From Dehalococcoidia bacterium (GTDB lineage Bacteria; Chloroflexota; Dehalococcoidia; SZUA-161), in contig JACUUS010000001.1 of assembly GCA_014859215.1 (NCBI GenBank), positions 1 through 59,720 of the forward strand: a DNA stretch of 59,720 bases, read 5' to 3'. Below, piece after piece: positions 7,968 to 27,017 of the stretch. Numbering within the stretch: the stretch's first letter is position 1; each line of letters opens with the position of its first letter. The translations under genes were made by a program, and so were the position numbers. The notes below the pieces were generated by a model. The model searched no databases. It saw only the letters and a program-made list of their open reading frames with translations, and was not told the DNA's origin.

Positions 7968-10090
7968 GCCTGTCCTCCTCGGCGGATAAGGTCTACTTCG
8001 CGCAGAATGTTTGCCAGTTCCGGCATGCGGGAGAATGTCTCGAAATCGTAACGTGCTTTCCTGCGCCAGTTGGGGTGCTCCCGGACACCCGGAATATTCT
8101 GAGCTTCTGTCTCCAACCACAGGTCTTCCAGGTTGATGATAACGGCCTGGGCGGGGCTTGAACTCAGTAATCGCAGAACAGCCCTGAAAAGGGGGCCGGT
8201 CTGAGCAGAGGAGATTCGGTGGTCGAAACCCATTTTCCGCAGGTACGAGACCAGAGCCTCCTTCAGTTTCCTGCGGTCGAGGCGCTCCCCGGCTGCGCCC
8301 TCGTTATCGACGAGCCCTGTTTCCACGCGTTTCTCGATGTCCGCTTCCTGCCAGAAGGACGCGAAGGGCGGCATGTCGTGGGTATTCAAGCTGGCCACTG
8401 AAAGCGACGGGATGGGACGAAGCGCCCGGCCTCCGGCTGCCATCTCATACTCGATAATGTACATCTGGTGAATGGCGTGACTCTTCATGGCAGGTCTGAC
8501 TTCGGGAGGCACGGTACCCAGGTCCTCTCCCACGATCACCGCGTGGTTCCTATGTGATTCAAGAGTGAGGATTCCATAGAGTTCCTGGTCGTTGTAGCGC
8601 ACGTACACGCCGTCGGAAGCGTCCATGCCGGCGGGTATCCAGAACAGCCTGTGCAGCCCCATGATGTGATCTATACGAAGAATTCCCGCATGGCGCAGAT
8701 GGTGCTGGATGCACGCTTTGAAGTACGTGTATTTCTCCTGCCTGATGCTCTCCGGGTGCATGGGAGGGAATCCCCAATTCTGGCCGCTGGTAAAAGCCGG
8801 ATCGGGCGGCGCTCCCACCGAAACGCCATCCACAAAAAGGTCCGGGTAGCGCCAGGCATCGAACCCGTTGGGGCTCACACCCAGTGAGAAATCGAGGAAA
8901 AGGCCAAGCCCGTTATTCCGGCGAGTATCCTCGGAAAGCGTGCGCATCTGCTGGTGCAGGAGCCATTGAGTGTAAAGGTAGAAGCTCTTTGCGACTGGAT
9001 CGAAGTCCTTTTCGGTTACCGAGCCCTCCCTCAGCGGAGGCGGCCATTCATGCCACGGAGTGCGTTTTCTCTCGTGAACGGCTCTGAAGGCGGCATAGTC
9101 TCCGACTACAGGATTATTGCGGATGAAGTCCCTGAACGGAGCGGTTCCATCCCTGGACCCGGTGAAGAAGCAGCGTGAAAGTACTTCCAGAACACGGCGC
9201 TTGAGCGCCATAACGCCCTGATAATCAACCAGTGATGATCTACGCAGCCTGTCCATATCGGCGCCCATTGATACGGAAGCAAGAAGATCATTAGCCGCTG
9301 CGCAGCCGCTCAGTTCCGGAGAGCGGGCAACATCGACATACAGCTCGTTCCAGACGAGGCGGCTCACCGGGGCATAGGGGCTCGGTTCGCCTGATTCCTC
9401 GAGAAAGAGAGGAAGTAAAGGCAGGGTAGCAACAAGGCCTCCCCGCTGTCGGGTGACCCATTCAATCAGATTCTCCAGGTCGGAGAGATCGCCGCAGCCC
9501 CAGCTTGCTGCACTGTGCAGTGAATAGAGCGGAATAAACAGGCCCCACGTACGCGCCTGTCGCGACTGGTTGAAGGTGTAAGCCTTCGCGGGCGTTGAGA
9601 TGATCATGACCTCGTGGTGGTCGGGCGGAATATCCAGGGACAGCCGGTGGTAACCTGGAGGAAGTGCTTCCCCGAGCTCCAGCTTCTTGATGAGAAACCG
9701 GGCACCGTCCTCTTCCTTGACCATGACCAGTGGCAGATCGATCGATTTCCATCCAAGCGATTTCTTCTCGCCGTTTTCCAGGGCCAGTTCGCCTGTGACG
9801 GAATTCTCGCTCATCTGGGCAGGCAGGCGCAAGTGGATTTCGGGAGGTCCGCCATCCCAGGCCACAGCGACGGGATCAACCGCAGTCCGCAGAAGTTGGA
9901 GCTTACGTTCCCGCAGCGCGGAGGGCGCATCCTGAGCGGTTTCCACGGGAGCTCCGAGTCGCCGAAGGATTTCCACGAGAGAGCCGATTGACGACGGATG
10001 GCGCCCGTGCTTGACATCATAATATGCGGTCTGCACATGCCAGAGTAGAGCAAGCTCACGTACCGCACGGTTCAGAATCTGCCTGTTCAT
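7964..10090 (-). CDS. malQ: 4-alpha-glucanotransferase (amylomaltase, GH77) with N-terminal extension domain
   Basis: Contains GH77 blocks: [44 protein letters not shown]. The start is set to Met18 (ATG 10090-10088), which forms an ATGA overlap with the treS stop. Confidence 0.85.
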
Positions 10091-13000: not shown

Positions 13001-13440
13001 TTCTCGGGGGAATCGCTCCACACGTAGAAGTCGCGCCACCTGCTTTGAGCTCTGGCCTGGCGGGCACGCTGAAACCAGGGATGCTGGTCAGATGTATGAT
13101 TCAGGACTAGCTCGGTAATTACCTTTATGCCGCGCTTGTGCGCCTCATCCACGAAAAGCCTGAAATCGGGCAAACGTCCATAGACCGGGAGAATATTCGT
13201 ATAGTCCGAGATGTCGTAGCCATCATCCTTGAGGGGTGAGGGATAGAACGGCAACAGCCAGACTGCCGTGACGCCCAGGTCCTGCAGGTAGTCGAGCTTG
13301 TCAATAAGGCCCGCGAAATCGCCCACGCCGTCTCCATCGCTATCTGAGAAGGCGCGAACGTGCAGTTCGTATATTATCGCATCCTTATACCAGAGGGGGT
13401 CTTCATCAATCCACAAAGAGTCTGTATTCTGTTTGACCAT
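10087..13440 (-). CDS. treS: trehalose synthase / maltokinase fusion (TreS-Pep2/Mak)
   Basis: 1117 aa. The N-terminal half is a GH13 TreS (WYKDAIIYELHVRAFSDSDGDGVGDF, GVDGLRVDAVPYL, IRNHDELTLE). The C-terminal ~450 aa is a maltokinase-type kinase (HGDYHLGQILFTGKDFVIIDFEGEP). Confidence 0.9.
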   Translation of the reverse strand: MVKQNTDSLWIDEDPLWYKDAIIYELHVRAFSDSDGDGVGDFAGLIDKLDYLQDLGVTAVWLLPFYPSPLKDDGYDISDYTNILPVYGRLPDFRLFVDEAHKRGIKVITELVLNHTSDQHPWFQRARQARAQSRWRDFYVWSDSPEKYRDARIIFKDFETSNWDWDPTAKAYYWHRFYSHQPDLNYDSPLVQRAILRIVDFWLRMGVDGLRVDAVPYLFEREGTNCENLAETHQFLKRFRKFIDSRFKARMCLAEANQWPEEAVSYFGEGDEANMAFHFPLMPRMFMAIRLEDRFPIIDIIQQTPDIPPNCQWALFIRNHDELTLEMVTDEERDYMYRVYAHDPVARLNLGIRRRLAPLLNSDRKKIELMKCLLFSLPGTPVIYYGDEIGMGDNFYLGDRNGVRTPMQWSPDRNAGFSRTNPQRLYLPPIIDPEHHYEAINVENQQNNPDSLLWWTKRILALRKRYKAFGRGTLEFLFPENRKILAFFRKYENETVLVVANLSRAAQQTHLDLSQFAGRVPVDIFGRARFAQITSERYSLTLGPYAFFWFSLEQEQVTTIRAEPRPLEAVLETRAVTIRGDDIFDKENRAFLQGILADYIRDRRWFRGKARVIQSTEIVDVVPLNFDTTIASLVLLRVDYTEEEPEVYLLPLILAPAESRAEIAAEGSDAIIARVRKRLRTGDREMVLYDALIDKSFCTSLLESIGRRRRFRGENGRALALPSRAFKKLRGPEEHLEPSTVKAEQTNTSIIYGDRLILKIYRRLENGLNPDLEIGRFLTQRTPFPNIAPVAGSLEYRRGPELLSLGILQGFIPNEGDAWQYTIDFLGRYFEYALTHPTVQVPPVPLKPLLPLSHEIPQLALETIGPYLDSANLLGQRTAELHTALASIPDDPDFAPELFSYMYQNSVYHALRSFTTQNLQLLRQQTRHLPSEIQEKAAKAVELQDVILDRFRLLRRHKIRAQRIRCHGDYHLGQILFTGKDFVIIDFEGEPARPLSERRLKRSPLRDVAGMIRSFEYATHTVLLHQAALPVRPEDLPALEQWGKFWYHWVSTAFLSSYCEYIRKADLIPEDPEDLKTLLDAFLLEKVIYEIRYELNNRPDWLTVPLEGLLELLEAGQ

Positions 13441-13513
13441 GGGAACGGCTCCAAATCAATGCCTGACTGGCGGCATTACTGTTTACGGTGCTATCTTGAC
13501 CAGGTACGGTGCG

Positions 13514-13879
13514 CTACTCCCGGAGCGAAGTCCGTATGCTGTCCAGAATCCCCTCCACGCTGACTGGTTTGATCAACAGCGCTGTAGCGCCGTGTGTGAT
13601 GCTCTGTTTCTGCATGGCGGGGCTCCGCTTCTGCGAAATCAATACAAAGGGTATCCTGGCGTCACGCAATTGCTGACACCGGTCCCAGATTTCTTCGGGA
13701 AAACCGGATAGATCGATAACAGCTATTGATATGGAATGGATATTCTTGAGATGCCGGTCTACTTCTTCAAGACAGGCGGCGCGAAGGGTGTCGAAACCCT
13801 CACATTTCAGCCGTTCACCAAGCAGGTCGAGACTCTGGCTATCCGTGGCCACGAGGAGTACGGTGCGTTTGTCAGGCAT
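13514..13879 (-). CDS. stand-alone response-regulator receiver (REC) domain protein
   Basis: 121 aa with no output domain. It keeps the phospho-acceptor context (AVIDLSG), the T/S position (VLIS) and the K-P pair (LLIKP). The N-terminal acidic pair is reduced to TD. Confidence 0.75.
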   Translation of the reverse strand: MPDKRTVLLVATDSQSLDLLGERLKCEGFDTLRAACLEEVDRHLKNIHSISIAVIDLSGFPEEIWDRCQQLRDARIPFVLISQKRSPAMQKQSITHGATALLIKPVSVEGILDSIRTSLRE

Positions 13880-13882
13880 GTT

Positions 13883-15910
13883 TCACTCCGCTGCCTCGCC
13901 GGCTTCCTGCTTTCTCATCCCCGGGTTGCGAACGGGTTCGCCGGGCCGCGCGCGTGAAGGCAATCTGAAAATGTGCGCTGGATATGTGCGCGGATTGAGC
14001 TCGATATAGTTCCAGCTCCCCTTCCAGGTATAGTGGGATTCATTCAGGATATCATGCACCTGGTACGGTTCATTTTCTGGCAGCCCCAATTCGGCAAGGG
14101 GCAGTTCTACCCACCCGGACTGAGTGTGACAAGTGTCCAGGTTCACGACGACCAGTACTACATTTGAAAGGTCTGCCGTACTCTTGCTATAGGCCAGGAC
14201 CTGGTCATTATCAATGCGGTGAAATCGAAGGCTCCAGTCACTTTGCAGGGCCGCATTCTGCCGCCGGGCCAAATTGACCTGCGTGATGAAGTCCTTCAGG
14301 CTGTCCGGCCTTTCTATTTCCCAGTGCTTGATCTCGTACTTCTCGGAATCCAGGTATTCCTCACTTCCAGCCTGCCTGGGCTGGTTGACCTGGAGTTCGT
14401 ATGCGGGTCCATAAATTCCATAATTGGCCCCCAGGGTGGCTGCCAGGACCAGGCGTATCATGAATGCGGGCCGGCCGCCGGTCTGTAGATAGTGTATCAG
14501 AATATCAGGCGTGTTTGTCCACAGGCTGGGCCGGAAAAACTCGCGCACTTCAGTCCTGGTGAGTTCAGTGAAATAGTCGATGAATTCGGACTTGGAGACA
14601 CGCCACGCGAAGTAGGTATAGGATTGGGTGAATCCCAGCTTCGCCAGCCTGTACATGATCTTGGGTCGGGTGAAGGCTTCTGAGAGAAAAATGACCTCCG
14701 GATAGTCTTCTTTGACACCGGAAATAAGCCATTCCCAGAAACCGAACGGCTTTGTATGAGGGTTGTCCACCCTGAAAATGCGGACCCCCTGCTCGATCCA
14801 GAACATGACCACGCTCTTTAGCTCTTCCCATAGGGCTTCCCAGTTGGGGGTGTCGAAATTGAGCGGGTAAATATCCTCGTACTTCTTGGGAGGGTTCTCG
14901 GCGTATTGAATGGTGCCATCCGGACGCCATGAGAACCACTCCGGGTGCTCTTTGACGTATGGATGGTCCGGTGAGCAGTTGAATGCCAGGTCCAGGGCCA
15001 CTTCGATGTCGTAATCAGCAGCCCTGGACATGAAGTTGCGGAAATCCTCCAGGGTGCCAAGTTCCGGATTCACCGCCTTGTGGCCGCCTTTTTTTGAACC
15101 AATGGCCCAGGGGGTGCCGGGATCTCCGTCCGCCGCAAAGGGTACGTTGTTCTTCCCTTTCCGGCGAGTACCGCCGATCGGATGTATGGGCGGGAAGTAA
15201 ACAACGTCGAAACCCATCGCAGATACGTAGGGGAGACGTCTTTCGCAGTCGGCGAACGTTCCATGTTTGCCCGGTACGAGCGCGCACGATCGCGGGAACA
15301 TTTCGTACCAGCTTCCGAATCGGGCCCTTTCCCGGTCGACGCGCACCTCCAGCTCTCTCGGGTAGACTACAGCACGGTCCCTGTTAATATACCTCGTCAT
15401 CAAGAGGGACAGGTCTTCGCTGAGGGCGATTTCCACTTTGGAGGCTTCCGAAACCGCGCCTGACCTGAGAGAGCCCGCCCATTCCTGAAGGCCGGGTGAG
15501 TCCAGGGGAGAAGCGCGCCCTGCCGCGTCTTCGATCAGGTCCGCCCCGATCCGAAGTTCGATTGAAAGGTCCTGCCCGGCGTCGAGCCTCTTTTTCAGAT
15601 CCTTTCTCCAGGTCTGGAACGCGTCTATCATACCCATCAGCGTGAAGCGGTAGGGAGCGCACTCATTGACGAAGAAGGATGCCCGCCATCGATCATTGAC
15701 CAGGAACGTCATAGGGACTTCGACCCACACTGGATCGGTTGATTTTCGATACAGCAAAATAGCGAAGAGAGAGTCGTGCCCATCTGCGAATACATCCGCT
15801 TCCACCACCACCTTCTCGCCGACGACACGCTTGATGGGAAAACGACCGCCGTCTATCTCGGGATACACCCTGTCTATAACGACTCTCGTAGTGTACTTAT
15901 CGAGCTTCAT
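13883..15910 (-). CDS. glgE: alpha-1,4-glucan:maltose-1-phosphate maltosyltransferase (GlgE)
   Basis: 675 aa. It has the GlgE N-domain (IDRVYPEIDGGRFPIKRVVGEKVVVEADVFADGHD) followed by GH13_3 blocks (GFDVVYFPPIHPIG, IFRVDNPHTKP). Confidence 0.9.
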   Translation of the reverse strand: MKLDKYTTRVVIDRVYPEIDGGRFPIKRVVGEKVVVEADVFADGHDSLFAILLYRKSTDPVWVEVPMTFLVNDRWRASFFVNECAPYRFTLMGMIDAFQTWRKDLKKRLDAGQDLSIELRIGADLIEDAAGRASPLDSPGLQEWAGSLRSGAVSEASKVEIALSEDLSLLMTRYINRDRAVVYPRELEVRVDRERARFGSWYEMFPRSCALVPGKHGTFADCERRLPYVSAMGFDVVYFPPIHPIGGTRRKGKNNVPFAADGDPGTPWAIGSKKGGHKAVNPELGTLEDFRNFMSRAADYDIEVALDLAFNCSPDHPYVKEHPEWFSWRPDGTIQYAENPPKKYEDIYPLNFDTPNWEALWEELKSVVMFWIEQGVRIFRVDNPHTKPFGFWEWLISGVKEDYPEVIFLSEAFTRPKIMYRLAKLGFTQSYTYFAWRVSKSEFIDYFTELTRTEVREFFRPSLWTNTPDILIHYLQTGGRPAFMIRLVLAATLGANYGIYGPAYELQVNQPRQAGSEEYLDSEKYEIKHWEIERPDSLKDFITQVNLARRQNAALQSDWSLRFHRIDNDQVLAYSKSTADLSNVVLVVVNLDTCHTQSGWVELPLAELGLPENEPYQVHDILNESHYTWKGSWNYIELNPRTYPAHIFRLPSRARPGEPVRNPGMRKQEAGEAAE

Positions 15911-16001
15911 AAGATTTGGAGTACGCCGGAAGCGCTTCCTTTCCTCTGGGGGAATCGTGTCTGCCCGGTGGCCCTGCTGGATGCGGAATTCGCGCAGTTA
16001 G

Positions 16002-16030
16002 ATGATAAATCAGGCAACAGAAGTCTTCAA
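16002..16030 (-). promoter_or_regulatory. candidate sigma70-type promoter for the glgE-to-treY operon
   Basis: The minus strand reads TTGAAG (16030-16025), a 17-nt spacer, then TATCAT (16007-16002). It lies about 90 nt upstream of the glgE ATG. Confidence 0.3.
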
Positions 16031-16115
16031 GGCCATTGTCATAGAATCAGGTAACACCAGGTTGGAATATCGTACTGATAAGTGGCCGCAGACGGAGAAA
16101 AATGCAGGCACGGCT

Positions 16116-18248
16116 TCAATCGACGTGGATGCTTTCCCGGGGCGAGGCAGCAGCCGGCATGTACATATCGTTTGTGTACTCCTTCATCATGCGCCGTGTA
16201 CAGAAAAGGGGCGCCACAGTCCGGATGGCCTCCTTCACTATCTGCACCCAGCGGTGCGGGACTCCCGCCCGGTCGCGATCATAGAAACAGGGTACAATCT
16301 CTTCTTCAAGCAGGCGATACAGGGCCCGCGAATCTGCTTCATCTTCCAGCGCGCGGTCCTCAAGGTCGCCGCCTATAGCCCAGCCGTTCGTGTTCTTGTA
16401 GCCCTCGTGCCACCAACCGTCCCGTACGCTGAGATGCGGTACCCCGTTGATGGAGGCCTTCATGCCGCTTGTACCGCTTGCCTCCCAGAGCCGCCGGGGA
16501 GTATTGAGCCAGACATCCACTCCGGAGACAAGATACCTGGACATGTGCATATCGTAGTCTTCAATAAAGATAATACGACCGTGGAAGTCCCGGCTGCCGG
16601 CCAACTGGTAGACCTGGTGAAGCAGATGTTTTGCGGGGGTATCGGCCGGGTGTGACTTGCCGGCAAAGACTATCTGCACGGGGCGGGAGGGATCGGTGAT
16701 AATCCGTTTCAACCTCTGAATGTCACGGAATATGAGGCCTGGTCTCTTATACTCTACGAAGCGGCGAACAAATCCGAGGGTCAGGTAATCCGGATGGAAG
16801 AGCGCCCCCGTAGCGATGACCTGATCGGCTGTCATTTCGCCGTTCGCCCAACCTCTCTGGAAACGGTTGAATATGACCGCCATAAGCTTATGCTTGAGCA
16901 GATTCCGCACTTCCCACAGTTCCTCATCCGGCATTTCGTTCACGTGCGCCCAGATCTCCTCTTCGTCCTGTTTCTGAAGCCATTCCGGCCCGAGATATTT
17001 CTTGAAGAGCGTGGCCATCTCAGGGGCGACCCATGTACAGAGGTGTATTCCATTAGTGATATGCGAAATGGGTACGGATTCTTCGCTTGCTTCCGGCCAC
17101 AGGACGTGCCACATTCTCCGGGAAACCATGCCGTGCAGCCGGCTCACGCCATTGCGGCGGTTGGACATCTTGAGGGCCAGTATGGTCATGTTGAAGGTAG
17201 GATCAAGCTTGCCGTCTCTGCGCCCCAACTGAAGGAACTGGTCGCGGTCAATGCCAAGTTGTTGCCAGCTGGCGGCAAAGTACTTCTCAACCAGTTCGGC
17301 AGGGAAAATATCGTGACCGGCCGGGACCGGGGTGTGGGTTGTGAAGACTGTGTTAGCCTGTACGCTGCCAATCGCCTCGGCCATGGGGGTCCCGGTCTCA
17401 AGTTTCTCCCTGATACGTTCCAACATCATAAAACCGGGATGGCCCTCGTTGGCGTGCCAGACTTCCGGGTTAATACCGAGCGCCCGCAATACCTTGACTC
17501 CAGCTACCCCAAGCACGATCTCCTGCTGAAGGCGGGTTTCCTGGTCTGCCACGTAAAGGCGCGAGGATAAGAGGCGGTCCTGGAGGCTGTTTTCCTCTAC
17601 ATTTGTATCGAGCAGGTAAAGGTTGACCCGGCCGATGCGGACTCTCCACGCGCTGACGTACAATCTCTTGTCTCCCACCGGGACTTCGACCATGAGCTTA
17701 TTGCGTCCGGGAAGGAAAAGCTGCTCTATTGGCGTCTCGTCGAAGTTCAACTGCTCGTAGAGCTCCTTCTGCCAGCCATCGGGTGTGATTCGCTGGTGGA
17801 AATAGCCCTGTGGGTACATAAATCCGACCCCGACGAGGGGCAAACCCAGGTCGCTGGCTTCTTTACAGATGTCGCCTGCCAGGATTCCCAGTCCGCCGGC
17901 GTAAATGGGGAGCGAATTGTGAATTGCGAATTCCATGGAAAAATAGGCTATAGGTCCTCGCAGCAAGCCCGAGTTCGTTTTGTGAAACCAGGTGTCATCG
18001 CCCTTTGTATCGGCATCGAACGCGGTCAAGACAGAGTCATGGAGTCTGAGGAATACAGGGTCGGCGGCAGCCTGCCGAAGACGTTCCGGACTCATTTCCT
18101 GAAGCTGTTTTACCGGGTTATGCCCGCTGGACTTCCACAGGGGGTTATCGAGGGTCTGGAAAAGGTCCCGTGCTTCGGGATGCCAGCTCCACCAGAGGTT
18201 ATGCGCAAGCTCAAGCAACCGGCTTATTCGGTCCGGTATTGGAATCAT
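16116..18248 (-). CDS. glgP: alpha-glucan phosphorylase (GT35, GlgP/maltodextrin phosphorylase type)
   Basis: 710 aa. The N-terminus reads LAHNLWWSWHPEARDLF. It also contains IAYFSMEFAIHNSLPIYAGGLGILAGD and the pyridoxal-Lys region EASGTSGMKA. Confidence 0.9.
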   Translation of the reverse strand: MIPIPDRISRLLELAHNLWWSWHPEARDLFQTLDNPLWKSSGHNPVKQLQEMSPERLRQAAADPVFLRLHDSVLTAFDADTKGDDTWFHKTNSGLLRGPIAYFSMEFAIHNSLPIYAGGLGILAGDICKEASDLGLPLVGVGFMYPQGYFHQRITPDGWQKELYEQLNFDETPIEQLFLPGRNKLMVEVPVGDKRLYVSAWRVRIGRVNLYLLDTNVEENSLQDRLLSSRLYVADQETRLQQEIVLGVAGVKVLRALGINPEVWHANEGHPGFMMLERIREKLETGTPMAEAIGSVQANTVFTTHTPVPAGHDIFPAELVEKYFAASWQQLGIDRDQFLQLGRRDGKLDPTFNMTILALKMSNRRNGVSRLHGMVSRRMWHVLWPEASEESVPISHITNGIHLCTWVAPEMATLFKKYLGPEWLQKQDEEEIWAHVNEMPDEELWEVRNLLKHKLMAVIFNRFQRGWANGEMTADQVIATGALFHPDYLTLGFVRRFVEYKRPGLIFRDIQRLKRIITDPSRPVQIVFAGKSHPADTPAKHLLHQVYQLAGSRDFHGRIIFIEDYDMHMSRYLVSGVDVWLNTPRRLWEASGTSGMKASINGVPHLSVRDGWWHEGYKNTNGWAIGGDLEDRALEDEADSRALYRLLEEEIVPCFYDRDRAGVPHRWVQIVKEAIRTVAPLFCTRRMMKEYTNDMYMPAAASPRESIHVD

Positions 18249-18383: not shown

Positions 18384-19766
18384 CTATTCGTCTGACGGGC
18401 TGCCGATGGGCGTCTCCCCGAGCTTGGCATCATAGGACTCCAGAGCCCTGCCGGTGTCCGAGAGGATCTCTTCGGCATTGCCAAACTCCTTCTCCCAGGT
18501 GCGGCTCCTGGCAACCGTCTTGAATCGCTCATAGCCCTCCCTCGCCGTCTTCGCCAGAACAGCAAGGGGCATCCCGCCAAGGACAAGGTAGACATCGACG
18601 CGGTCAGAACTCCTGTCGATCTGAGAAAGCTGGACTGTGCTGCCCTTCAGGCGGGGAAAGGTCTCCTTGTTCCACCTGTTTATCTCGGAGCGCAAGGTTT
18701 GTTCATGCATGGAGGCGGCAACCTTTTCGGGAACATTGACGACCATGTGTGACAGGGTGATCTCTTGCCTGTCCACTGGCGCAAGCGGGCACAGGAGCGC
18801 GCTCTCGAGGATATTCCGGATACTGCCGAAGATTTCGAGGCTGCGCCCGATGGCCACGCAGGGCACAAAAGCATGTATGCCAAGAGACCTGCTCATCTTG
18901 GCAAGGTAGCCGGGTTCAGTGTGACCGCGTCCTGATACGGTCACCGTACCGGCCAGTGCTCCAAGAAGGCGAGAAACGAGTTCTTCCCTGGCAATCTCTT
19001 CGCCAGCTTCACCCACTCCGCGGATCTTCATCAAGCGATCGTGCTCAACGAGCACCACCATGTCGGCGACCGGGCCCCGTTCCAGGTCGATCAGCCTTGA
19101 CAGTGAGCAGACCGCATTGAACTGAGCGCCGTCCTGTTCAGTGGCCGCGGGCATGAGGGCGATTACGAGAGTCCTGGCGTGCGAATTATGGCATCGGGCT
19201 CGCTCAAGTATACAGGGGCTGGCCCCGCTGCCTGTTCCTCCGCCGAGAGCGGAAAGCAGAAAGACAGCCTGTTTGCGTACCGTTGACCGTATACCGGAGC
19301 GGAGCAGCCGATCATCCAGCCCAGGGTCGCCGCACGCCAGTTGCTGCCCGAGACCGAAGTACCCGACCTGTTTGCCCGCAGTACCGGGCAGCAGATGCAG
19401 CGAAAGAGGTGAAATAACATAATCCTTGCTCGCTCCCGTTTCCGGGATCAAGCCGGCAAGGTGCCTCGCTTCTCCCGAGGCATCTATCATCAGGAACCCG
19501 GAGTTCTTGAGGTCGCGTCGGGATGCCTGGAAGAAGTTCTGGACTAACCTGCAGCCCTGGTCGCCCACGCCCATGAAAATTCGCTCCCGGGCAAACTTCA
19601 GACGCTTTTCTTCATCCCCCAGAGCCTTGAGGAGAAGATCGAGCTCGGTCTCACAGTCTATCACAGGCAGACCGCAGACAGGGCAGGGCGCCGAATCGTC
19701 CTGGCACTGGTGACTGTTCGGGCAGAAAATTGTCTTCTTCTCGGTGTACTGTGTCGCCATCGTCAA
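18384..19766 (-). CDS. FtsZ/tubulin-superfamily GTPase-like protein with N-terminal 4-Cys zinc ribbon (paralogue B)
   Basis: - 460 aa, starting with a CPNSHQC...CPVCG zinc ribbon.
- T1-like loop: MGVGDQGCR.
- T3-like loop: GYFGLGQQ.
- Exact tubulin signature GGGTGSG (aa 175-181, nt 19224-19244).
- FtsZ-like VVLVEHDRL segment.
- FtsZ C-domain-like end: HMVVNV...VDVYLVLGG.
- The tracked start is TTG at 19766. An ATG at 19760 is an equally good start. Confidence 0.7.
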   Translation of the reverse strand: MTMATQYTEKKTIFCPNSHQCQDDSAPCPVCGLPVIDCETELDLLLKALGDEEKRLKFARERIFMGVGDQGCRLVQNFFQASRRDLKNSGFLMIDASGEARHLAGLIPETGASKDYVISPLSLHLLPGTAGKQVGYFGLGQQLACGDPGLDDRLLRSGIRSTVRKQAVFLLSALGGGTGSGASPCILERARCHNSHARTLVIALMPAATEQDGAQFNAVCSLSRLIDLERGPVADMVVLVEHDRLMKIRGVGEAGEEIAREELVSRLLGALAGTVTVSGRGHTEPGYLAKMSRSLGIHAFVPCVAIGRSLEIFGSIRNILESALLCPLAPVDRQEITLSHMVVNVPEKVAASMHEQTLRSEINRWNKETFPRLKGSTVQLSQIDRSSDRVDVYLVLGGMPLAVLAKTAREGYERFKTVARSRTWEKEFGNAEEILSDTGRALESYDAKLGETPIGSPSDE

Positions 19767-20734
19767 GAACCAACGTTTGAGTGCAAATAGGCCTCGAGAG
19801 TGCGGGCAGTTTCCTGGACGTGAGCTGTGATCGCGGGTTTATCATCGCTCGAAGGGCTATCTATCCCGGGATGGAGAGAGAGTCTCTGGATAAGAACGGC
19901 GGCCAGTCTCGACAGTTGAGGCAGGCATTCGTCAGCCTTGAGATTCTCCCCGAGTTCCAACCAGGCGCACAGAAGCCTGTACCGGAACGCGAAGAGGAAT
20001 ATGTACCTGATGTCAAACCATGAGGTCAAATGCGGACTCTCGGCTACGATCCCGGTAAATTCCCTCGGTTCCGGAGCATCATTCCCAAGCGTTTCCCCGA
20101 TAACCTGAAGCGTGGAAACAACTTTGCGCAAGACAGAGGAAGCATCACGCGCGAGAACGGCGTCATTGACCGCTTTCAACTGGTTGACGATGTCTACGGA
20201 TTGCAGCTCCGCGAGAGCCGTCGCCATTTCACCGGCCTGGCTGGTTGAGGCATCGATGCCGTCCCAGCCTTCATATGTGAGGTCACGAAAAATTCCAACG
20301 AGCAGGTCCACCACGAGCCAGGTGACGCACGCCGTCCTGTCCAGAAAGAGCCTGTACTGCGCTTTACGCTCCCGGAGCAGGTTCTGCTGGCGCAGGGTCT
20401 CTAGAGAGGCTTTGAGATCCCGACAGAATGCGACCGCGGCTTCGCCCTTAGCCAGCGACAGGCGGCTGGCGGCGCGTTCGCCCCTCGAGCCGGCCCATTC
20501 CAGCACCAGCGTGGTTGAAGAATCTCTGACTTTGGCGGACGTGATATCCGCCAATCTTATGGAAAATTCCAGGTGGGGTGACGAAAAAAAGTTGTTCTTC
20601 CTTTCGAAAAGGAGACTCTTGCTTGTCAACAAGAGCTTGCCCTTACCCACCTTATCGAGTTGCACATTCTTGAGCTCGGCCAGCGGGTGTTCTTCGGGCA
20701 GCGGCGGGGCCTGTATCTCGGCGACAGGACTCAT
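19763..20734 (-). CDS. hypothetical protein: N-terminal PH/GRAM-like domain plus C-terminal all-helical domain
   Basis: 323 aa. The GKGKLLLTSKSLLFERK...FSIRLADITSAKV pattern resembles PH/GRAM/bPH beta-sandwich domains. The start forms an ATGA overlap with the upstream gene. Confidence 0.5.
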   Translation of the reverse strand: MSPVAEIQAPPLPEEHPLAELKNVQLDKVGKGKLLLTSKSLLFERKNNFFSSPHLEFSIRLADITSAKVRDSSTTLVLEWAGSRGERAASRLSLAKGEAAVAFCRDLKASLETLRQQNLLRERKAQYRLFLDRTACVTWLVVDLLVGIFRDLTYEGWDGIDASTSQAGEMATALAELQSVDIVNQLKAVNDAVLARDASSVLRKVVSTLQVIGETLGNDAPEPREFTGIVAESPHLTSWFDIRYIFLFAFRYRLLCAWLELGENLKADECLPQLSRLAAVLIQRLSLHPGIDSPSSDDKPAITAHVQETARTLEAYLHSNVGS

Positions 20735-23097
20735 GCAGCAGCCTCGTTATGGCTCGCTTTGACCACCTGCCTGTGCCTGATGGCGCTCTGCCGGGCATCG
20801 AAGACAGCCTTATCCGGGTGAGCAGCGGCGTACATTCGCAGGTATTCCAGAGCATATTTCGAATTCATGGGGAGGTCCGAGCACATGATTTCCTGTGAAC
20901 GTGCGAACTTGTCATCGATGATGTACTCAATGTTGGGGTAGTTAATAAGGAAATCATTCATCTGGTGGTAGTTCTGGATCGCTCTGGCCTGGAGCTCGAT
21001 AGCTTCCAGCAACCTGTCCATGAAGATGAAGCGTCTGCTGATTGCATCATCCTCAAGCGTATTTGCAGCCGAGTTGAGCAGCTCTTGCGCTTCGGCCGCT
21101 GTGTGGCTGTTCTTGCCCCAGGAATACCCATTAGGGCATCTGCGGGTGTTGCCCTCCTCGAGAGCGCGGATGAGAGAGTTGAAATCTCGTACGGCACCGG
21201 TTGCGGCGTCCATCAATTTACGGCTTTGTTCGACGATAACTATAACGTGTGCCAGCATCCGAGAGCCCTGAACGGCACTGGCGATGGAATCGAGTTCCCC
21301 GGCTTTGGTGCGGCAGAGGTCTGCCGACTTCGCATCTCCGACGGATTCGAAAATAGGGGCGAGCCTGGTAAGGAGAATAGCCTTGAGTCTCTCCGACATG
21401 GAAGCGACCCGGCCCGCAAGTTCAACTATCGAGTTCTCGATTCGGCCATCTATAATCTGCAGGTCTTCGGATATGGTCCGTGCAGCTTCCTCGAATCTAC
21501 CCTGCTTTACAAATCCGTGGCCGATGTCGATGGTGGTGAGCGAAAACTCGGGATCGATCTCGTCCTGAATCGTGTTAGAGACTACGTCCCCTGCGGATAC
21601 GAGTTCTGTGGCCAGTTGCTTGAAAGCATTATTGAGCTTTTCCTGCTCAGCAAGAGCGGTGTCGAAGTCATCCACATGCAGGGCCAACTGGACCGGCGCG
21701 ATAACGCCGTTGATAGCCGGGATGCCGAGGGCACAGGCTTCGTCGACCGTGGCTTTGTACAGGCGTTTAGACTCCTCCAGGTACTTGATGAGCTTATCCT
21801 CGAGCTGCGCCTGCAGCAGGGAAAGCTGTTCGCGCATCGCGTGAAATTCACCGCAACTCATTTCGAGCCGGGGCAGGCTAAGGGCGCCTTCGCTTTCGAG
21901 GGTGAGCGCTACTTTTTCCTCGCACTGCGCAATCGAAGCCTTTTCATCGCCCAGGTCCCTGGTACGACAGACGCCGGCAAACTCATGAAGCCGCCTCCTG
22001 GTGCTGTCCAGGAGCTCGTAGAGCTCCAGAGAGAGGCCCGCCAGCACTCCCCTGAACCTCACTTTTGAATCGCGCCGTGACAGCCAGGTCTCCACTGTTG
22101 AAGCCAGGCCTGCGAATGCGAGCATTGCCCCCATCAGGATGCCGATGTTTGCCAGGTCGGAGAAAGCGGTCCTGTACCCCAGCGGTTTTTCCAGAAGCTG
22201 GAGGGGTACAAGGAATACGAGCGCCATTAGCAGTACAAGGAACACAGGGTTCAGAGCGCGCAGCAGAGAGTTGGTGTCTCCGAGCTTCCTCAGAGGGCTG
22301 AGAAGGGCTGGTGTGACCAGTACTGACGCGTACATGGAGAGGACGAGGACCACTCCCCCCCACCCCTCGATGAAGTAGGGTGAGAAATAGCTAAACCGGC
22401 TTATGTCGTGACTCAGCTGCCCATTGAATGCCGCTTTTAGTGAAGAAAGGTCCAGGTAGCTCAAAGCGGGCAACTGGGCATACTCCACCCGCAGGAAGAG
22501 GGGAAGCATTTCTCCTTCGGCAAGAGGGGGATATGGCATAACCAGGAAGGGCAGGTAAAAAACAATAAAAGCGAAAACGGCCCATCCACCGCTGACAGTT
22601 GATCCCCTGAGCCGGAAAAGGGTAATGGCTGCGAGTAATGCGAAAGAGACAACGAAATACGGAGTGAGCATCAGTACGCCGGCCGCTGCACCTACAGTAA
22701 CACCCAGTATGGCTCCTGTAAGCCCGGTCAGAGCGAAGGGAAGCATGAGCGCAATGGTACCGAGCGATATAAAAGCCCACAGCGCGCCATCGAGCTGGTA
22801 CGAGTATGCAGGCGATGCGAACAGGAGCATTAGTACGAGAGCGATCGCGGGCCACCGGTACGCCAGCAGCGCGCACAGGAGCGCGAGGAACACGCACATA
22901 GCGGGGGGATAAAAGGGCAGGAAGTAGTAGACTACGAGTGAGGTGATGAGGAAGATCAGAGATGTGGCGAGCTTGCCGCAGAACTCCCGGAAGGCTTTCT
23001 CACTGTTCCCTACGTCACATCCTTGCAGCAGCCCCTCACCGGTGTCTTCGGTAACTTGCAGCGAAGGCAAGGTATTCTCCATAAGATCCGTTACCAC
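20731..23097 (-). CDS. polytopic membrane protein (~8-9 predicted TM helices) with ~440-aa cytoplasmic helical/coiled-coil C-terminal domain
   Basis: 788 aa. Residues ~45-340 are almost continuous hydrophobic helices. The rest is amphipathic and helical, rich in E/K/L/A. The tracked start is GTG at 23097 with no clear SD, and an ATG lies at 23082, so the start is uncertain. Confidence 0.6.
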   Translation of the reverse strand: MVTDLMENTLPSLQVTEDTGEGLLQGCDVGNSEKAFREFCGKLATSLIFLITSLVVYYFLPFYPPAMCVFLALLCALLAYRWPAIALVLMLLFASPAYSYQLDGALWAFISLGTIALMLPFALTGLTGAILGVTVGAAAGVLMLTPYFVVSFALLAAITLFRLRGSTVSGGWAVFAFIVFYLPFLVMPYPPLAEGEMLPLFLRVEYAQLPALSYLDLSSLKAAFNGQLSHDISRFSYFSPYFIEGWGGVVLVLSMYASVLVTPALLSPLRKLGDTNSLLRALNPVFLVLLMALVFLVPLQLLEKPLGYRTAFSDLANIGILMGAMLAFAGLASTVETWLSRRDSKVRFRGVLAGLSLELYELLDSTRRRLHEFAGVCRTRDLGDEKASIAQCEEKVALTLESEGALSLPRLEMSCGEFHAMREQLSLLQAQLEDKLIKYLEESKRLYKATVDEACALGIPAINGVIAPVQLALHVDDFDTALAEQEKLNNAFKQLATELVSAGDVVSNTIQDEIDPEFSLTTIDIGHGFVKQGRFEEAARTISEDLQIIDGRIENSIVELAGRVASMSERLKAILLTRLAPIFESVGDAKSADLCRTKAGELDSIASAVQGSRMLAHVIVIVEQSRKLMDAATGAVRDFNSLIRALEEGNTRRCPNGYSWGKNSHTAAEAQELLNSAANTLEDDAISRRFIFMDRLLEAIELQARAIQNYHQMNDFLINYPNIEYIIDDKFARSQEIMCSDLPMNSKYALEYLRMYAAAHPDKAVFDARQSAIRHRQVVKASHNEAAA

Positions 23098-23111: not shown

Positions 23112-25838
23112 TTAGCCGCCGGCGATTTTCTCACCAGGCCCGGGTATGTCTGTAACCTCCTCCAGACCGTTGCCGTCGAAGGAAGCATCCATGCCGTGCT
23201 CGAGCAGGAACGAATGGGCAAGCCTCTTCTCTTCCTGGGTGGTGTGGCTGTAAATGTGCTTCATTTCGCTGTAGCATTCCAGGAATTCCGGCTCCGCCCG
23301 GGCGGCGATAATAAGGAATCTGACAGTCCAGGGATCGGAAGAATCGATTTCGCGTATGGCAATACTCCTGGAGGCATCCTCCTTCACATAACCGGAGAGG
23401 GTCGCCCTCACGTCAGCAGCCAGATCATGGTCCCATATACCGCGGGGCGAGACTATGGCAAACCAGATGTAATCGGTCTTGTATTGTGAAGTGAGGCCCA
23501 TCACGCCGGGAACCCGGAAGATGCCAAGCACGCTGGACAGGTATTCCTTAAGATGGTCCTTGTCTACGATTTCATTAAGTATGTTTTCGTTGGACAGCGA
23601 CGCTTCATCCTCCATAAGGATTCTCTGCATCAGCTTAAGCTGGACGTCCTCCGTCAACTCGGCGGTGCGATTGTAGAAACCCTTGTCCTTTACCATTGCA
23701 TTCATTTTCTCGTAATGCCGGTTTGCCAGCTCGGTGATCTCGGCGAGAAGCTTGCGGTAATCGGAGTTGACGTCGAATCGCCTCTCGATAGCCGTGTACT
23801 CGCTCATCTTGGCCTGTACCTGCTCAAGGCCCTCGGACTGCAGACGAATGTCTTCGTCTACCGATGTCAGGGCATGGTCCAGTTTCTTCCGCCGGTCATC
23901 CCAGAGTTTCTTCTTGCCGCCGGCCAGGAATCCGAGCTTGATATCACTCACCTCCCTGCTCGCGCGTGTCCTTTCAACCTGTTTACTCTTGCGGTTAAGC
24001 TCGAGATTGTCCAGCGCGGACGTCAGGCTGGCAGCCTCTTCTTCCAGTACCCTCTTGACCCTGCGGCAATTGACCAGCAGGGAATCCATGCTTTTCAGCT
24101 GGATATTGAGTGGAGTGAACATTGACGAGAGAAGTGAGAACAGGACCACAAGCTCGGGATTTATGATCCGCTCGACGCGTGTAAGGGCTGCCTGCTGATT
24201 CTCGGTCTTTTCGCTTTTTACCAGGTTCTTCTGAAGCTTGTCAGCCAGCTTCTTGGTCTCGAGGTAGCGGCGCAGACTCCGCAGGTAGTCCTTTATCATC
24301 GCAGCGAGTTCGCTGACATCATTGACCAACTGCACTTCCTTCGCGGTCAGTTGCTGAGCGCTGGGGAGGCTGTCTCGCAGGTTCTCAAGGATGTCGTCTA
24401 CCTCGCGCAGAAATTCGCCGTAGTTCTTTGATATGCGTGCCGCGAGTTCGATGAGCCTGGACGCCTGTTTCCGGATTAGAGACTCCACTGTTCCTTCGGG
24501 CGTATCCAGACCAATGGCCATGACGGGCCGGCCCAGCTCATTCACCTGGGCCTTGATAGGGTCGTCGACACCCTTGAGGTGCATTATGAATTCGGTCTCA
24601 ATGGAGCGGTCGGCATTGATGAGGTTCTCAACGGTTTCGTCGAAAGCATCCTCGTTGAATTTGCCGGCTTCGATAAGCTGCTGCCTGTAGATCTCCCGGA
24701 GCTCCTGGTAGCAGAGTTCGAGGATCTTCGCCACGCCGCCGACTTCTGTCGGATGTGTGCCAAGGTACACTTCCTTCTTCTCTCGCCTCAAGGCCCGGAC
24801 CTTGTCCAATCGGTGCAGGAATATCTTGGTCAGGTCGATGAACTCGGTGATAGGATACGTGATGCTTATCGTTGAAAGCACGTGCAGCCACCGACCATTC
24901 ATGTCGATATTGGAGCCGATATTGCTGAGTAGATCGGCGAGGTCGAAGTTCATGGAAGTCATCAAAATGTCGACAATGGCGTCATCGATCAGGCGTTTGG
25001 CGTCGATCAGGCTGGCAGTCTTGCTGTACGCAGGCCCGAGCGGCATGCACAGAAAAGCGCTGAACGGGTTCTCGTAGGTGTGCCCGAAGCGGGCCGTCAC
25101 CCTGGCGTTGCTCTGCTTGTTCACGGCCATGCCTGTTTCAAGGAGGGCGCTGAAGGCGGAGGTGCCTTTGGCCGGAGGATCATCGCCCGAGCAAGGCAGT
25201 ATGCACAGGCCGATAATAGGTACGCCGCTGCCCAGTTTGCGGCGAAGATGCCTGGCGAAATCGAGGACCATGCCGCTGCCGCTGCCGCCACCCAGGCCGA
25301 AGACGAGGAATACCACAGGCTGGATAGTGGACGTGAAAAGGTGCTCCTTGAAGGTGTCCATGTAGTTGTCCAGCAATCTCAGGTGGTGATAGTTCAGTCC
25401 ATAGATGGCCTTGGAGAGCGCCCGTCGCCGGCCCACTCCGCCTGCCAGCGGCGGTATATCCATGGAAGAAGCAAGCCACGGCTGATAGTCCGCGCCGACC
25501 TTCACGCCTTCGCGCTTCAGGTACTGCGGGAACTTGTTGATAAAATCGAACATGCTCTCCGGAGTCGGAAACTTGACGGACTTCGCCGTGAGAGAAATCT
25601 TATCCGAAGGTATGCCCCTTTCCCGGAGCTCCTCGAACAGGTTCCTGGCTGAGACCTCCAGGCTTTGAATATCATGGTCGGCGACATCGATAGCCAGGCA
25701 GGAAACCCTGACACCCTCTTTCTTGACCAGGGACAGCAGGGTGTTGCGGTTATTAATGAAGGCCTCCACAATATTCACGCCGGCTCCGCCCAGACCTACC
25801 AGCTGTATAGACGAGTTATATGTCCCGAAACGAGCCAT
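23112..25838 (-). CDS. FtsZ/tubulin-superfamily GTPase-like protein with ~600-aa coiled-coil C-terminal extension (paralogue A)
   Basis: - 908 aa.
- T1 loop IQLVGLGGAGVNIVEAF (nt 25779-25796), compared with FtsZ IKVIGVGGGGxNAV.
- T3-like loop AGGVGRRRA.
- T4 signature GLGGGSGSG (nt 25272-25292).
- T7-type NFDLAD, i.e. NxDxxD (nt 24933-24950).
- A strong SD, GGGAGG, lies 5 nt upstream of the ATG. Confidence 0.7.
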   Translation of the reverse strand: MARFGTYNSSIQLVGLGGAGVNIVEAFINNRNTLLSLVKKEGVRVSCLAIDVADHDIQSLEVSARNLFEELRERGIPSDKISLTAKSVKFPTPESMFDFINKFPQYLKREGVKVGADYQPWLASSMDIPPLAGGVGRRRALSKAIYGLNYHHLRLLDNYMDTFKEHLFTSTIQPVVFLVFGLGGGSGSGMVLDFARHLRRKLGSGVPIIGLCILPCSGDDPPAKGTSAFSALLETGMAVNKQSNARVTARFGHTYENPFSAFLCMPLGPAYSKTASLIDAKRLIDDAIVDILMTSMNFDLADLLSNIGSNIDMNGRWLHVLSTISITYPITEFIDLTKIFLHRLDKVRALRREKKEVYLGTHPTEVGGVAKILELCYQELREIYRQQLIEAGKFNEDAFDETVENLINADRSIETEFIMHLKGVDDPIKAQVNELGRPVMAIGLDTPEGTVESLIRKQASRLIELAARISKNYGEFLREVDDILENLRDSLPSAQQLTAKEVQLVNDVSELAAMIKDYLRSLRRYLETKKLADKLQKNLVKSEKTENQQAALTRVERIINPELVVLFSLLSSMFTPLNIQLKSMDSLLVNCRRVKRVLEEEAASLTSALDNLELNRKSKQVERTRASREVSDIKLGFLAGGKKKLWDDRRKKLDHALTSVDEDIRLQSEGLEQVQAKMSEYTAIERRFDVNSDYRKLLAEITELANRHYEKMNAMVKDKGFYNRTAELTEDVQLKLMQRILMEDEASLSNENILNEIVDKDHLKEYLSSVLGIFRVPGVMGLTSQYKTDYIWFAIVSPRGIWDHDLAADVRATLSGYVKEDASRSIAIREIDSSDPWTVRFLIIAARAEPEFLECYSEMKHIYSHTTQEEKRLAHSFLLEHGMDASFDGNGLEEVTDIPGPGEKIAGG

Positions 25839-25840
25839 GG

Positions 25841-26449
25841 TTACCTCCCACTGATCCTCTCAAGCTGCTGCTTGACCTGTTCCAGATCCCGACCGAGTTG
25901 CTTGTCTATCTTGGTCAGTCTTACGGATAAGACATCCAGCTTGCCCGCTTCCTCATCAATCTGCTGGCGTACAAGGCTGCCGCCTGATCTTGACCTGAGG
26001 AAGAGGAGGAAGAAAATGACCGCAAACACAGCGGCGATGGCTATGGCTACAATATATGGCATGAACGATACCTGGGACGAGGCTACCGGAAATCCCGAGG
26101 CAGACGTCGGAAGCGTTCCCAGCAGAGCCGTCGCGCTCTCAACCAGTCCTTTCGCGCTCAGGTCCTTGGCGACCTTGATCACGCTGTCGGCCAGGCTTGC
26201 GTACCGGGGTTCGACGACAGAAGTCTGGAGAAGGTTCTGCTTGCTCGTCAGGAGTTGTTCGTAGGCTACTATGGCCTGGTCCTTAACATCGACACTGTAT
26301 TCGTCCAGCAGGGTGTCCTGAGGACCGAGAAGAAGTCTCACCATGCCTACAGGCCTGATGAAATGCAGGTAATCACCATTTGATATCTTCTCAGATGTAT
26401 AGTCCGAGGGCACAGTCCCCGTCAGGGCAAACCTGGCTGTCCCTTCCAC
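25841..26449 (-). CDS. single-pass membrane protein with cytoplasmic coiled-coil tail; probably the 3' part of a larger frame interrupted by TAG
   Basis: 202 aa from a GTG with no convincing SD. It has one TM helix (MPYIVAIAIAAVFAVIFFLLFL) followed by RSRS and a heptad-like tail. It lies in the same frame as ORF 26480-26794, separated only by TAG plus 10 sense codons. Confidence 0.5.
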   Translation of the reverse strand: MEGTARFALTGTVPSDYTSEKISNGDYLHFIRPVGMVRLLLGPQDTLLDEYSVDVKDQAIVAYEQLLTSKQNLLQTSVVEPRYASLADSVIKVAKDLSAKGLVESATALLGTLPTSASGFPVASSQVSFMPYIVAIAIAAVFAVIFFLLFLRSRSGGSLVRQQIDEEAGKLDVLSVRLTKIDKQLGRDLEQVKQQLERISGR

Positions 26450-26479
26450 CCCGTTGAACCTGATTACCGGCTGCCCTGG

Positions 26480-26794
26480 CTACCAGGTATCGGTATTGAC
26501 ACCTGCATAATCGTTTTCAAGCCGCCAGTACACATCGCCTATTTTTCGCAGGGGAGTGCTGAGGCCCAGAAGTGTATCTTCCAGTCCCACCCCAATGTCG
26601 ACTTCCAAAGTGACTGTGTATGTTGCGCCTGCCATCAGCGGCCCTTTGGTTACATCGCTGCCATCGATATTCCTGACGATGCATGATGATATGAGGGCTG
26701 GTGAGGGGCTCTGGGCTGACACTGAGGCAGGGAATGCAAGAGCGAGGACTGGGACTACGAGCATAACTAGTGCCAGAAGTCTCACCTTGTTCAT
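26480..26794 (-). CDS. small secreted protein (Sec signal peptide); probably the 5' part of the frame continued in 25841-26449
   Basis: The start is set to the ATG at 26794 (MNKVRLLALVMLVVPVLALAFPASVSA/QSP), with AAGGAG 8 nt upstream. The tracked GTG at 26803 is less likely. The mature part is beta-rich. Confidence 0.55.
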   Translation of the reverse strand: MNKVRLLALVMLVVPVLALAFPASVSAQSPSPALISSCIVRNIDGSDVTKGPLMAGATYTVTLEVDIGVGLEDTLLGLSTPLRKIGDVYWRLENDYAGVNTDTW

Positions 26795-27017
26795 AACATA
26801 CACTCCTTTAATTCACCGGGTTCATTGTCTGTCGATACGCCGCTCAGGGTAAGGGGCCCGAGGCCTTGCCACCTCATCACATCAGCCCATCCCTCCCCTC
26901 ATACCTTGAGCCGGAGTTTGCCCGGGTGAATCTGGAGACTTCTGAAAGCTGATAAAGAACGGCAAACCACCCACTGCCCGGCGGACTGACGAAAAGGCCC
27001 CGCCCGGCATTGTGCCA

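Follow-up and report, generated by a model that had tools for sequence, protein, structure and literature searches.

We analyzed a 59,720-nucleotide (nt) stretch of the genome of a Dehalococcoidia bacterium (hereafter the window; GenBank assembly GCA_014859215.1, contig JACUUS010000001.1, positions 1 to 59,720, forward strand), which contains an open reading frame (ORF) encoding a protein of 908 amino acids (aa). This protein, earlier labeled 'paralogue A', is a member of the FtsZl1 (Tubulin_2) family, which has been known since 2010, and is not an oddity. What is new beyond the 2010 description is a T7 loop in the FtsZ register, a plausible C-terminal domain (C-domain) split by a long helical insertion, and a defined gene cassette. 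On balance, we favor a reading in which this FtsZl1 member, having a two-domain body with a stalk between strands S7 and S8, would form a membrane-tethered and GTP-dependent polymer. The ORF is real and lies on the minus strand, a point absent from an earlier sequence-only reading of this DNA, and its product is identical to the metagenome-assembled genome (MAG) protein IBX68_00065 of NCBI (hypothetical protein, Dehalococcoidia bacterium). The ORF and its features, from the N-terminus to the C-terminus of the protein, were as follows:

23112..25838, minus strand: 908-aa ORF, ATG to stop, encoding the FtsZl1/Tubulin_2-family protein
25041..25838, minus strand: N-terminal nucleotide-binding domain, aa 1-266, with six predicted strands S1-S6 (AlphaFold, Foldseek, and Pfam)
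25779..25796, minus strand: T1 loop GLGGAG, aa 15-20, with its glycines in 83 of 84 homologues
25419..25445, minus strand: T3-like AGGVGRRRA, aa 132-140 (alignment and model)
25272..25292, minus strand: T4 signature GGGSGSG, aa 183-189 (motif, conservation, and profile alignment)
25164..25196, minus strand: T5-like loop PCSGDDPPAKG, aa 215-225 (conservation; aligned to the FtsZ stretch KPFNFEGKKR by hhalign)
24933..24950, minus strand: T7-equivalent NFDLAD, aa 297-302 (hhalign register, secondary structure, and conservation)
24858..24887, minus strand: strand aa 318-327, proposed as S7, the first strand of the C-domain (model; aligned to RW.xVL.T of the short relative P0166)
23514..24851, minus strand: helical module (stalk), aa ~330-775 (~445 aa), at least 11 helices, read as an S7-S8 insertion
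23184..23486, minus strand: C-terminal alpha/beta block, aa 785-885, proposed as S8-H10-S9-S10 (+H11) of the tubulin/FtsZ C-domain

The 908-aa protein matched PF13809 (Tubulin_2) over aa 13-216 (E = 1.5e-10; 41.3 bits against a cutoff of 27) and PF00091 (Tubulin; E = 6.4e-9; 36.8 bits against a cutoff of 33) in Pfam. Precomputed PF13809 annotation was found on nearly all of its homologues, and the close homologues are named 'tubulin-like domain-containing protein' by NCBI. The Pfam family Tubulin_2 corresponds to the FtsZ-like group, FtsZl1 (Santana-Molina et al. 2023, PMC9871819). Identity as a canonical FtsZ was ruled out by NCBIfam and Pfam searches, in which TIGR00065 scored 17.9 bits against a cutoff of 295.2 and FtsZ_C gave no match. 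Additionally, a phmmer search with the head (aa 1-345) against 1.84 billion representatives retrieved just 120 matches, among them the approximately 1100-aa proteins P0210 (E = 1.7e-5), P0233 (E = 6.6e-4), and P0237 (E = 9.6e-4). The N-terminus of P0233 closely resembles MA2711, and those of P0210 and P0237 are similarly close to haloarchaeal entries of the 2010 alignment. Judged by sequence, the 908-aa protein is directly related to the FtsZl1 members listed in 2010.

FtsZl1 was defined by an FtsZ-like head, a long coiled-coil region, and a globular domain at the C-terminus, with inserts specific to the family in the T1-T4 interval, while T6-H7/T7 and an FtsZ-type C-domain were undetected (Makarova & Koonin 2010, PMC2875224). 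The sequence-only reading had called a head fused to a long coiled coil unusual for the superfamily, but this layout, followed by a C-terminal domain, is what defines FtsZl1 in the literature. The 908-aa protein has the same head, T1-T4 inserts, helical middle, and C-terminal domain as FtsZl1 proteins such as M. acetivorans MA2711 and H. utahensis Huta_2051, and is like them in giving no FtsZ_C or Tubulin_C Pfam match and in being encoded with membrane proteins. It differs from the classical members, which are approximately 1000-1150 aa long, in its length of 908 aa, and the lineages Dehalococcoidia, Thaumarchaeota, Bathyarchaeia, and Methanomethylicota are absent from the 2010 list.

The full-length AlphaFold2 model was built from the same 84 homologues whose alignment provided the conservation counts in this study, and reached a mean predicted local distance difference test (pLDDT) score of 89.1 and a predicted template modeling (pTM) score of 0.77. 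Foldseek searches with this model retrieved CetZ2 as the best match (E = 3.7e-7), along with M. jannaschii FtsZ, gamma-tubulin, and TubZ, all with a probability of 1.00. As modeled, the head is a tubulin/FtsZ-fold nucleotide-binding domain and its motifs are not a product of chance. The presence of this fold had been set as a test in the sequence-only reading, and was confirmed here by structure prediction and Foldseek. The four motifs of that reading were also found at the residues it gave (GLGGAG at 15-20, GGGSGSG at 183-189, and NFDLAD at 297-302), and AGGVGRRRA could be located at 132-140.

In T1, G15, G17, G18, and G20 were nearly invariant, and invariant positions among the homologues included G133, G134, R137, R139, G181, G183-185, G187, F298, and D299, as well as P215, C216, D219, D220, A223, and G225 of the T5-like loop. 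The T3-like segment stands directly before helix 139-152 (H3), within the 30 aa of highest conservation in the protein, and a family-specific insert of approximately 45 aa separates S3 from T3. CetZ/FtsZ structures (PDB 4b45, 1fsz, and 1w59) were the best structural matches for the head, and share with it the T4 signature and the T7 pattern N-x-D-x-x-D in the same register, although identity was only approximately 13-18%. Compared with CetZ/FtsZ, the 908-aa protein has the approximately 45 aa inserted before T3 and, in our reading, approximately 440 aa of helices within the C-domain. An FtsZ-type C-terminal linker or peptide was not identified in the 908-aa protein.

The T7 loop was located by three lines of evidence. 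In an hhalign comparison of the family profile with E. coli FtsZ, which aligned from T4 onward (E = 5e-4, probability 31%), MNFDLAD fell on MNVDFAD (FtsZ residues 206-212), so that N297, D299, and D302 correspond to N207, D209, and D212. The AlphaFold model has NFDLAD in the loop that connects helix 277-295 (H7) to helix 300-307 (H8). D299 was aspartate in all 84 homologues and D302 in 79 of them (glutamate in four), and N297 was asparagine in just 54. At the equivalent place, distant long FtsZl1-like proteins carry N-x-[DE]-x-x-D (LNFDSND, TNIELSD, and RNLEYDD). Since the hhalign register, the position in the model, and the conservation of the aspartate pair agree, we assign NFDLAD as the T7 equivalent in an H7-T7-H8 arrangement, in line with the sequence-only reading. 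In contrast, FtsZl1 proteins had no identifiable T7 in the 2010 study, whereas the 908-aa protein has a clear one in the FtsZ register. It is reasonable to expect that an intact T7 would bring about polymerization-activated GTP hydrolysis.

The C-domain is probably split by the helical insertion and not replaced. The earlier statement that no FtsZ C-domain is recognizable stands at the level of sequence, since FtsZ_C and Tubulin_C gave no Pfam match for aa 715-908 even at E <= 5, but it probably does not stand at the level of structure. In the model, the C-terminal block consists of strand 790-797, helix 804-817, the hairpin 826-832/838-848, and two helices, followed by the motif LAHSFLLEHG. 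The order of elements, S7 ... S8-H10-S9-S10(-H11), is that of FtsZ and tubulin, with the S7-S8 connection (the site of H9) expanded. The helical module, which had been taken for a coiled coil replacing the C-domain, is better read as an insertion within it, between S7 and S8. Moreover, what had been described as a small globular tail is actually a conserved region of approximately 170 aa, comprising a helical subdomain (aa 730-780) and the alpha/beta block (aa 785-885).

Natural relatives lacking the stalk point in the same direction. Nine stalk-less proteins of approximately 470-570 aa, with approximately 30% head identity, matched the family hidden Markov model (HMM) in two blocks (~5-290 and ~775-888), and just approximately 70-90 aa lie between the two blocks in these proteins. 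Global hmmalign of the short relatives could not span the 450-aa deletion, and a delta-stalk profile without aa 336-775 was used instead. With this profile, five of the nine relatives aligned as a single domain across the junction, and of the junctions tried, delta(336-775) scored best in six of the nine, a group that contains all five bridging relatives. The stalk-less relatives and the 908-aa protein also have a common terminal motif, E[KR]xLxHSxLLExG. As a separate observation, the stalk-less group of approximately 470-570 aa (P0139-P0166, outside the window) lacks the FD..D motif of T7, and many of its members have His-rich N-termini (HDHDHDHD) and a C-terminal cysteine motif, ECIWGCACW, which together suggest metal binding by these proteins.

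Structural comparison of the C-terminus was carried out with the fragment 715-908, which folded alone with a pLDDT of 77.8. In a Foldseek search against PDB, approximately 30 of the top 50 chains were FtsZ, CetZ, TubZ, or tubulin. The FtsZ matches covered 57-64 columns at 2.2-3.0 Å (probability 0.85-0.98), with the beta-alpha-beta-beta block superposed on the FtsZ chains, and should be C-domain matches because the fragment lacks the GTPase head. TubZ (PDB 2xka, 2xkb, and 3m89), which like the 908-aa protein is a divergent tubulin-fold GTPase, gave the longest alignments of the fragment (approximately 105 columns), which fits a C-domain with terminal helices after it. Unlike TubZ, the 908-aa protein has an inserted stalk and a chromosomal context rich in membrane proteins, and a TubR/centromere partner is absent here. 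In classical FtsZl1 proteins, a weak collinear match of a PW[DE]I... strand and an H..LL[DE].G motif hints that the C-domain may be split in them as well.

The stalk itself is E/K/L/R-rich and was modeled as at least 11 distinct helices, each 9-55 residues long. Heptad-type periodicity exceeded the 95th percentile of shuffled sequences in 31% of the 28-aa windows within aa 330-716, compared with 5-6% elsewhere. The approximately 550-residue coiled coil proposed earlier thus shrinks to approximately 445 aa of many helices, in which heptad periodicity is enriched in part alone. Because pTM was high, the model suggests a folded-back bundle or hairpin rather than a single extended coil. Inside the helical module, a conserved hydrophobic stretch, NPELVVLFSLLSSMFTPLNIQL (aa 560-581, nt 24096-24161), contains an invariant E562 and is the sole transmembrane (TM)-like segment of the 908-aa protein (Kyte-Doolittle value 1.66). 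This stretch is a candidate membrane- or partner-binding element.

Five genes packed closely on the minus strand (26803-18384), which abut or overlap one another, are referred to here as the cassette, and the 908-aa gene is the second of them. The other four genes were as follows:

25841..26803, minus strand: gene 1, ~320 aa, with a signal peptide, an extracytoplasmic domain, one TM segment (aa 251-269), and a short cytoplasmic coiled coil
20731..23097, minus strand: gene 3, 788 aa, whose N-half is a polytopic membrane region (TM-like segments within aa 39-333) and whose C-half is soluble and helical
19763..20734, minus strand: gene 4, 323 aa, soluble, its start overlapping the stop of gene 3
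18384..19766, minus strand: gene 5, 460 aa ('paralogue B/D'), with a zinc ribbon at the N-terminus ahead of a tubulin-like domain (PF00091, E = 1e-10)

Two of the five cassette products are therefore membrane proteins, and a second tubulin-like protein is encoded beside the first. The 460-aa protein carries a zinc ribbon (CPxxH...CxxCG), a T1 motif (GVGxxG), and a T4 motif (GGGTGSG), and is without the acidic T7 pair. Among the orthologues compared (loci L001, L003, and L005-L008), the archaeal ones have a degenerate T4 (LSEGIVAG, AYDGLSSG, or TWDGIGSG), and some of them are inverted and lack the zinc ribbon. From these sequence features, the 460-aa protein may be a pseudo-GTPase partner of the 908-aa protein. 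No Pfam match was found for the 788-aa protein, and the Pfam search gave no family assignment for the 323-aa protein. Residues 25-80 of the latter weakly matched the PH-like C-terminal domain of VPS13 (E = 0.1), a hint of lipid or membrane binding that lies below any cutoff and was disregarded. Relaxing the Pfam threshold to E <= 5 yielded nothing credible for the partner proteins, the C-terminal fragment, or the stalk, and a weak RhoGAP match, like the VPS13_C one, was below cutoff and disregarded.

The operons of FtsZl1 genes are frequently linked with vWA, P-loop GTPase, OmpA, and kinase genes, although this link does not define the family and also extends to the A1/A2 families (Makarova & Koonin 2010). 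No vWA, P-loop GTPase, OmpA-like, or Ser/Thr kinase domains were found in the cassette or nearby in the window, and none of the five cassette proteins has a Walker A motif (P-loop). Since it has no P-loop motif, the 788-aa protein was ruled out as the 'membrane-associated GTPase' of the archaeal operons described in 2010. The cassette departs from the 2010 partner set in that the 908-aa protein is accompanied by another tubulin-like protein and by two membrane proteins, one polytopic and the other a bitopic secreted/TM protein.

The cassette (proteins of ~320, ~900, ~790, ~325, and ~440 aa, the last tubulin-like) was found in seven sampled loci, including the window, from Chloroflexota, Thaumarchaeota, and Methanomethylicota. 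The six other loci belong to a 79%-identical relative, another Chloroflexi MAG, a thaumarchaeon, a Methanomethylicota contig, and two further contigs, with occasional gene inversions among the copies. The thaumarchaeal counterpart of the 908-aa protein shares 55% identity over its full length. In the 79%-identical relative (L008), the cassette is flanked by different genes (GlnA/CoA-transferase). At another locus (L006, JGI 3300044502), a 1052-aa vWA protein is encoded directly upstream (3320-6478) and a serine recombinase downstream (16046-17602). This vWA protein, a classical FtsZl1 partner, was present at this one sampled cassette locus alone. The recombinase at L006, the different neighbors in L008, and the 55% identity between Dehalococcoidia and Thaumarchaeota point to a cassette that moves as a unit, between domains too.

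In the reading that we favor, the N-terminal domain would bind GTP through T1, T3, T4, and T5-like loops and lead through H7 to a T7 loop carrying the catalytic-type residues D299 and D302. In the second domain, S7 (aa 318-327) would be parted from the beta-alpha-beta-beta unit (aa 790-848) and the terminal helices by the module of approximately 440 aa. Subunits would stack head to tail as in FtsZ and tubulin, with the T7 loop of one subunit completing the GTPase site of the next. The S7-H9-S8 region lies on the lateral face of tubulin and FtsZ protofilaments. Because of this position, the stalk insertion would extend outward from the side of the filament without obstructing the longitudinal interfaces. 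In tubulin, this region makes the lateral contacts (M-loop), and its identity with the stalk insertion point was inferred from published structures. Anchoring of the polymer to the two cassette membrane proteins could then occur through the stalk, and the 460-aa protein may act as a non-catalytic partner, for example a cap, a nucleator, or a heterodimer mate. The resulting function would be that of a membrane-associated cytoskeletal or membrane-shaping system apart from cell division. The 2010 prediction for FtsZl1 is in line with a membrane system separate from cell division (Makarova & Koonin 2010).

The presence of two tubulin-like genes, always together in the cassette, also raises the idea that the 908-aa and 460-aa proteins form an obligate heterodimer in the manner of alpha/beta-tubulin or BtubA/BtubB, in which the 908-aa protein would supply T7 to the nucleotide site of the 460-aa protein or cap it, and further polymerization would be optional. 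The T7 asymmetry between the two recalls alpha/beta-tubulin. The 908-aa protein has the invariant T7, and the 460-aa protein has T1 and T4 but not the acidic T7 pair, with T4 degenerate in archaeal orthologues; likewise, alpha/beta-tubulin and BtubA/BtubB are paralogues encoded together, one of which is without the catalytic T7 residues. In contrast to those pairs, however, the two cassette proteins are extremely divergent from each other and show almost no similarity past T4. Furthermore, the gene for the 460-aa protein is inverted and shortened in two loci, and Bathyarchaeial homologues of the 908-aa protein occur without it. We regard obligate heterodimerization as unlikely.

A non-polymerizing GTPase has the lower standing of an improbable explanation. 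The 908-aa protein would in that case be a switch or mechanochemical enzyme of the dynamin/BDLP type, or a signaling protein, in which T7 would support a transient dimer and the stalk would act on membranes or partners without cytomotive filaments. The head, the helical-bundle stalk, and the membrane partners do make up a dynamin-like layout, and the conserved hydrophobic stretch at aa 560-581 lies in the stalk. Both Makarova & Koonin (2010) and Wickstead & Gull allowed that FtsZl1 may not form filaments, and the stalk-less relatives of approximately 500 aa without the acidic pair indicate that the fold can persist without it. Nevertheless, both T7 aspartates are strictly conserved in the subfamily, which favors trans catalysis across a longitudinal interface, and all characterized superfamily members polymerize, as stated in that literature. 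The missing P-loop also means that the protein is not a dynamin homologue; the likeness to dynamin-like proteins and BDLP, which have a GTPase head and helical stalk beside membrane proteins, is a functional analogy alone, and the fold is unrelated. As for an accessory or mobile module, such as a conflict/defense system or TubZ-like phage/plasmid segregation in place of a housekeeping cytoskeleton, this would agree with the patchy distribution, the 55% full-length identity between Dehalococcoidia and Thaumarchaeota, the changed flanking genes in the 79%-identical relative, the serine recombinase adjoining one locus, and the presence of TubZ among the structural matches. However, no phage or plasmid genes surround the cassette in the window, where housekeeping metabolism is encoded, no TubR/tubC-like DNA-binding partner is present, and two dedicated membrane proteins are ill-suited to DNA segregation. 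PADLOC gave no matches for the seven cassette and neighboring proteins at E <= 0.01, making a known defense system unlikely, and we consider the whole explanation very improbable.

Several observations weigh against the membrane-tethered polymer that we favor. Polymerization, GTPase activity, and the membrane role are entirely inferred, and no FtsZl1 protein has been experimentally characterized in the literature searched, where hits for 'Tubulin_2' were swamped by eukaryotic gene names. Structural or biochemical studies of FtsZl1 were likewise missing from the open literature searched. In sequence searches of PDB, both single-sequence and profile-based, the T4 region alone linked the protein to FtsZ/CetZ, and the other matches were coiled-coil noise. 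The hhalign probability was only 31%, and the tail of that alignment past H8 conflicted with the predicted secondary structure and was disregarded. For the C-terminal fragment 715-908, no Foldseek match against PDB was individually significant (best E = 0.038), and a viral library returned mostly RusA-like resolvases, a phage 'FtsZ' appearing once, at rank 45. The tubulin C-domain shares the SCOP fold 'Bacillus chorismate mutase-like' with RusA and IspF. Because the viral matches were mostly RusA-like, the fold class of the C-terminus is right but generic, and fold similarity by itself is no proof of homology. Covariation between S7 and the C-terminal sheet, measured as mutual information with average product correction (MI-APC; N = 123, effective number of sequences (Neff) 47), lacked the power to bear on their pairing, since enrichment was absent even for neighboring head strands.

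Gene content adds two further difficulties. Gene 1 is interrupted by an in-frame TAG at 26480-26482 (minus strand), which is a single CAG->TAG change at a Gln (W-Q-P-G) conserved in the 79%-identical relative and the thaumarchaeal homologue. This change is either an assembly error or a nonsense mutation, and the latter could mean that the cassette is undergoing decay in this genome. In addition, a Bathyarchaeial homologue (L002, GCA_038883335.1, 10001-12865) stands alone, without the cassette. This gene adjoins an Orc1/Cdc6 gene, and Bathyarchaeial homologues of approximately 950 aa have a C-terminal zinc-ribbon extension (CPxC...CxxC) that is missing from the 908-aa protein.

The rest of the window contains housekeeping genes, including a GlgE-pathway alpha-glucan cluster, glycosyltransferases, and cofactor genes. 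The alpha-glucan cluster lies directly downstream of the cassette on the minus strand (1739-18248) and encodes GH57 + DUF3536, a TreZ-like amylase, GlgB, MalQ, a TreS-maltokinase fusion (1117 aa), GlgE, and alpha-glucan phosphorylase. Rfam and tRNA scans of the window found nothing. In a promoter/terminator scan, counts were at chance level, and one TTGACA-17-TATTCT site was located approximately 220 nt upstream of the cassette.

Makarova & Koonin (2010) left open whether FtsZl1 proteins polymerize. A bolder view, which we offer tentatively as a possibility that may well prove wrong, is that FtsZl1 proteins form true cytomotive tubulin-type filaments with H7, T7, and a split C-domain, in which a lateral stalk would link the GTP-driven dynamics of the polymer to a dedicated partner, a polytopic membrane protein, and a catalytically dead second paralogue would serve as cap, nucleator, or heterodimer mate. 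The cassette would then encode a previously unrecognized, horizontally exchanged membrane cytoskeleton of Chloroflexota and TACK archaea, and the 2010 question of whether FtsZl1 can polymerize would be settled. The conserved cassette names two membrane proteins and a second tubulin-like protein as candidate partners, which makes the function of FtsZl1 approachable by experiment, and the natural stalk-less relatives mark cut points for a compact, crystallizable core. Within the tubulin/FtsZ superfamily, no other widespread branch is as divergent as FtsZl1, and if filaments form, bacteria and TACK archaea would have in it a tubulin-type cytoskeleton of a new, membrane-tethered kind.

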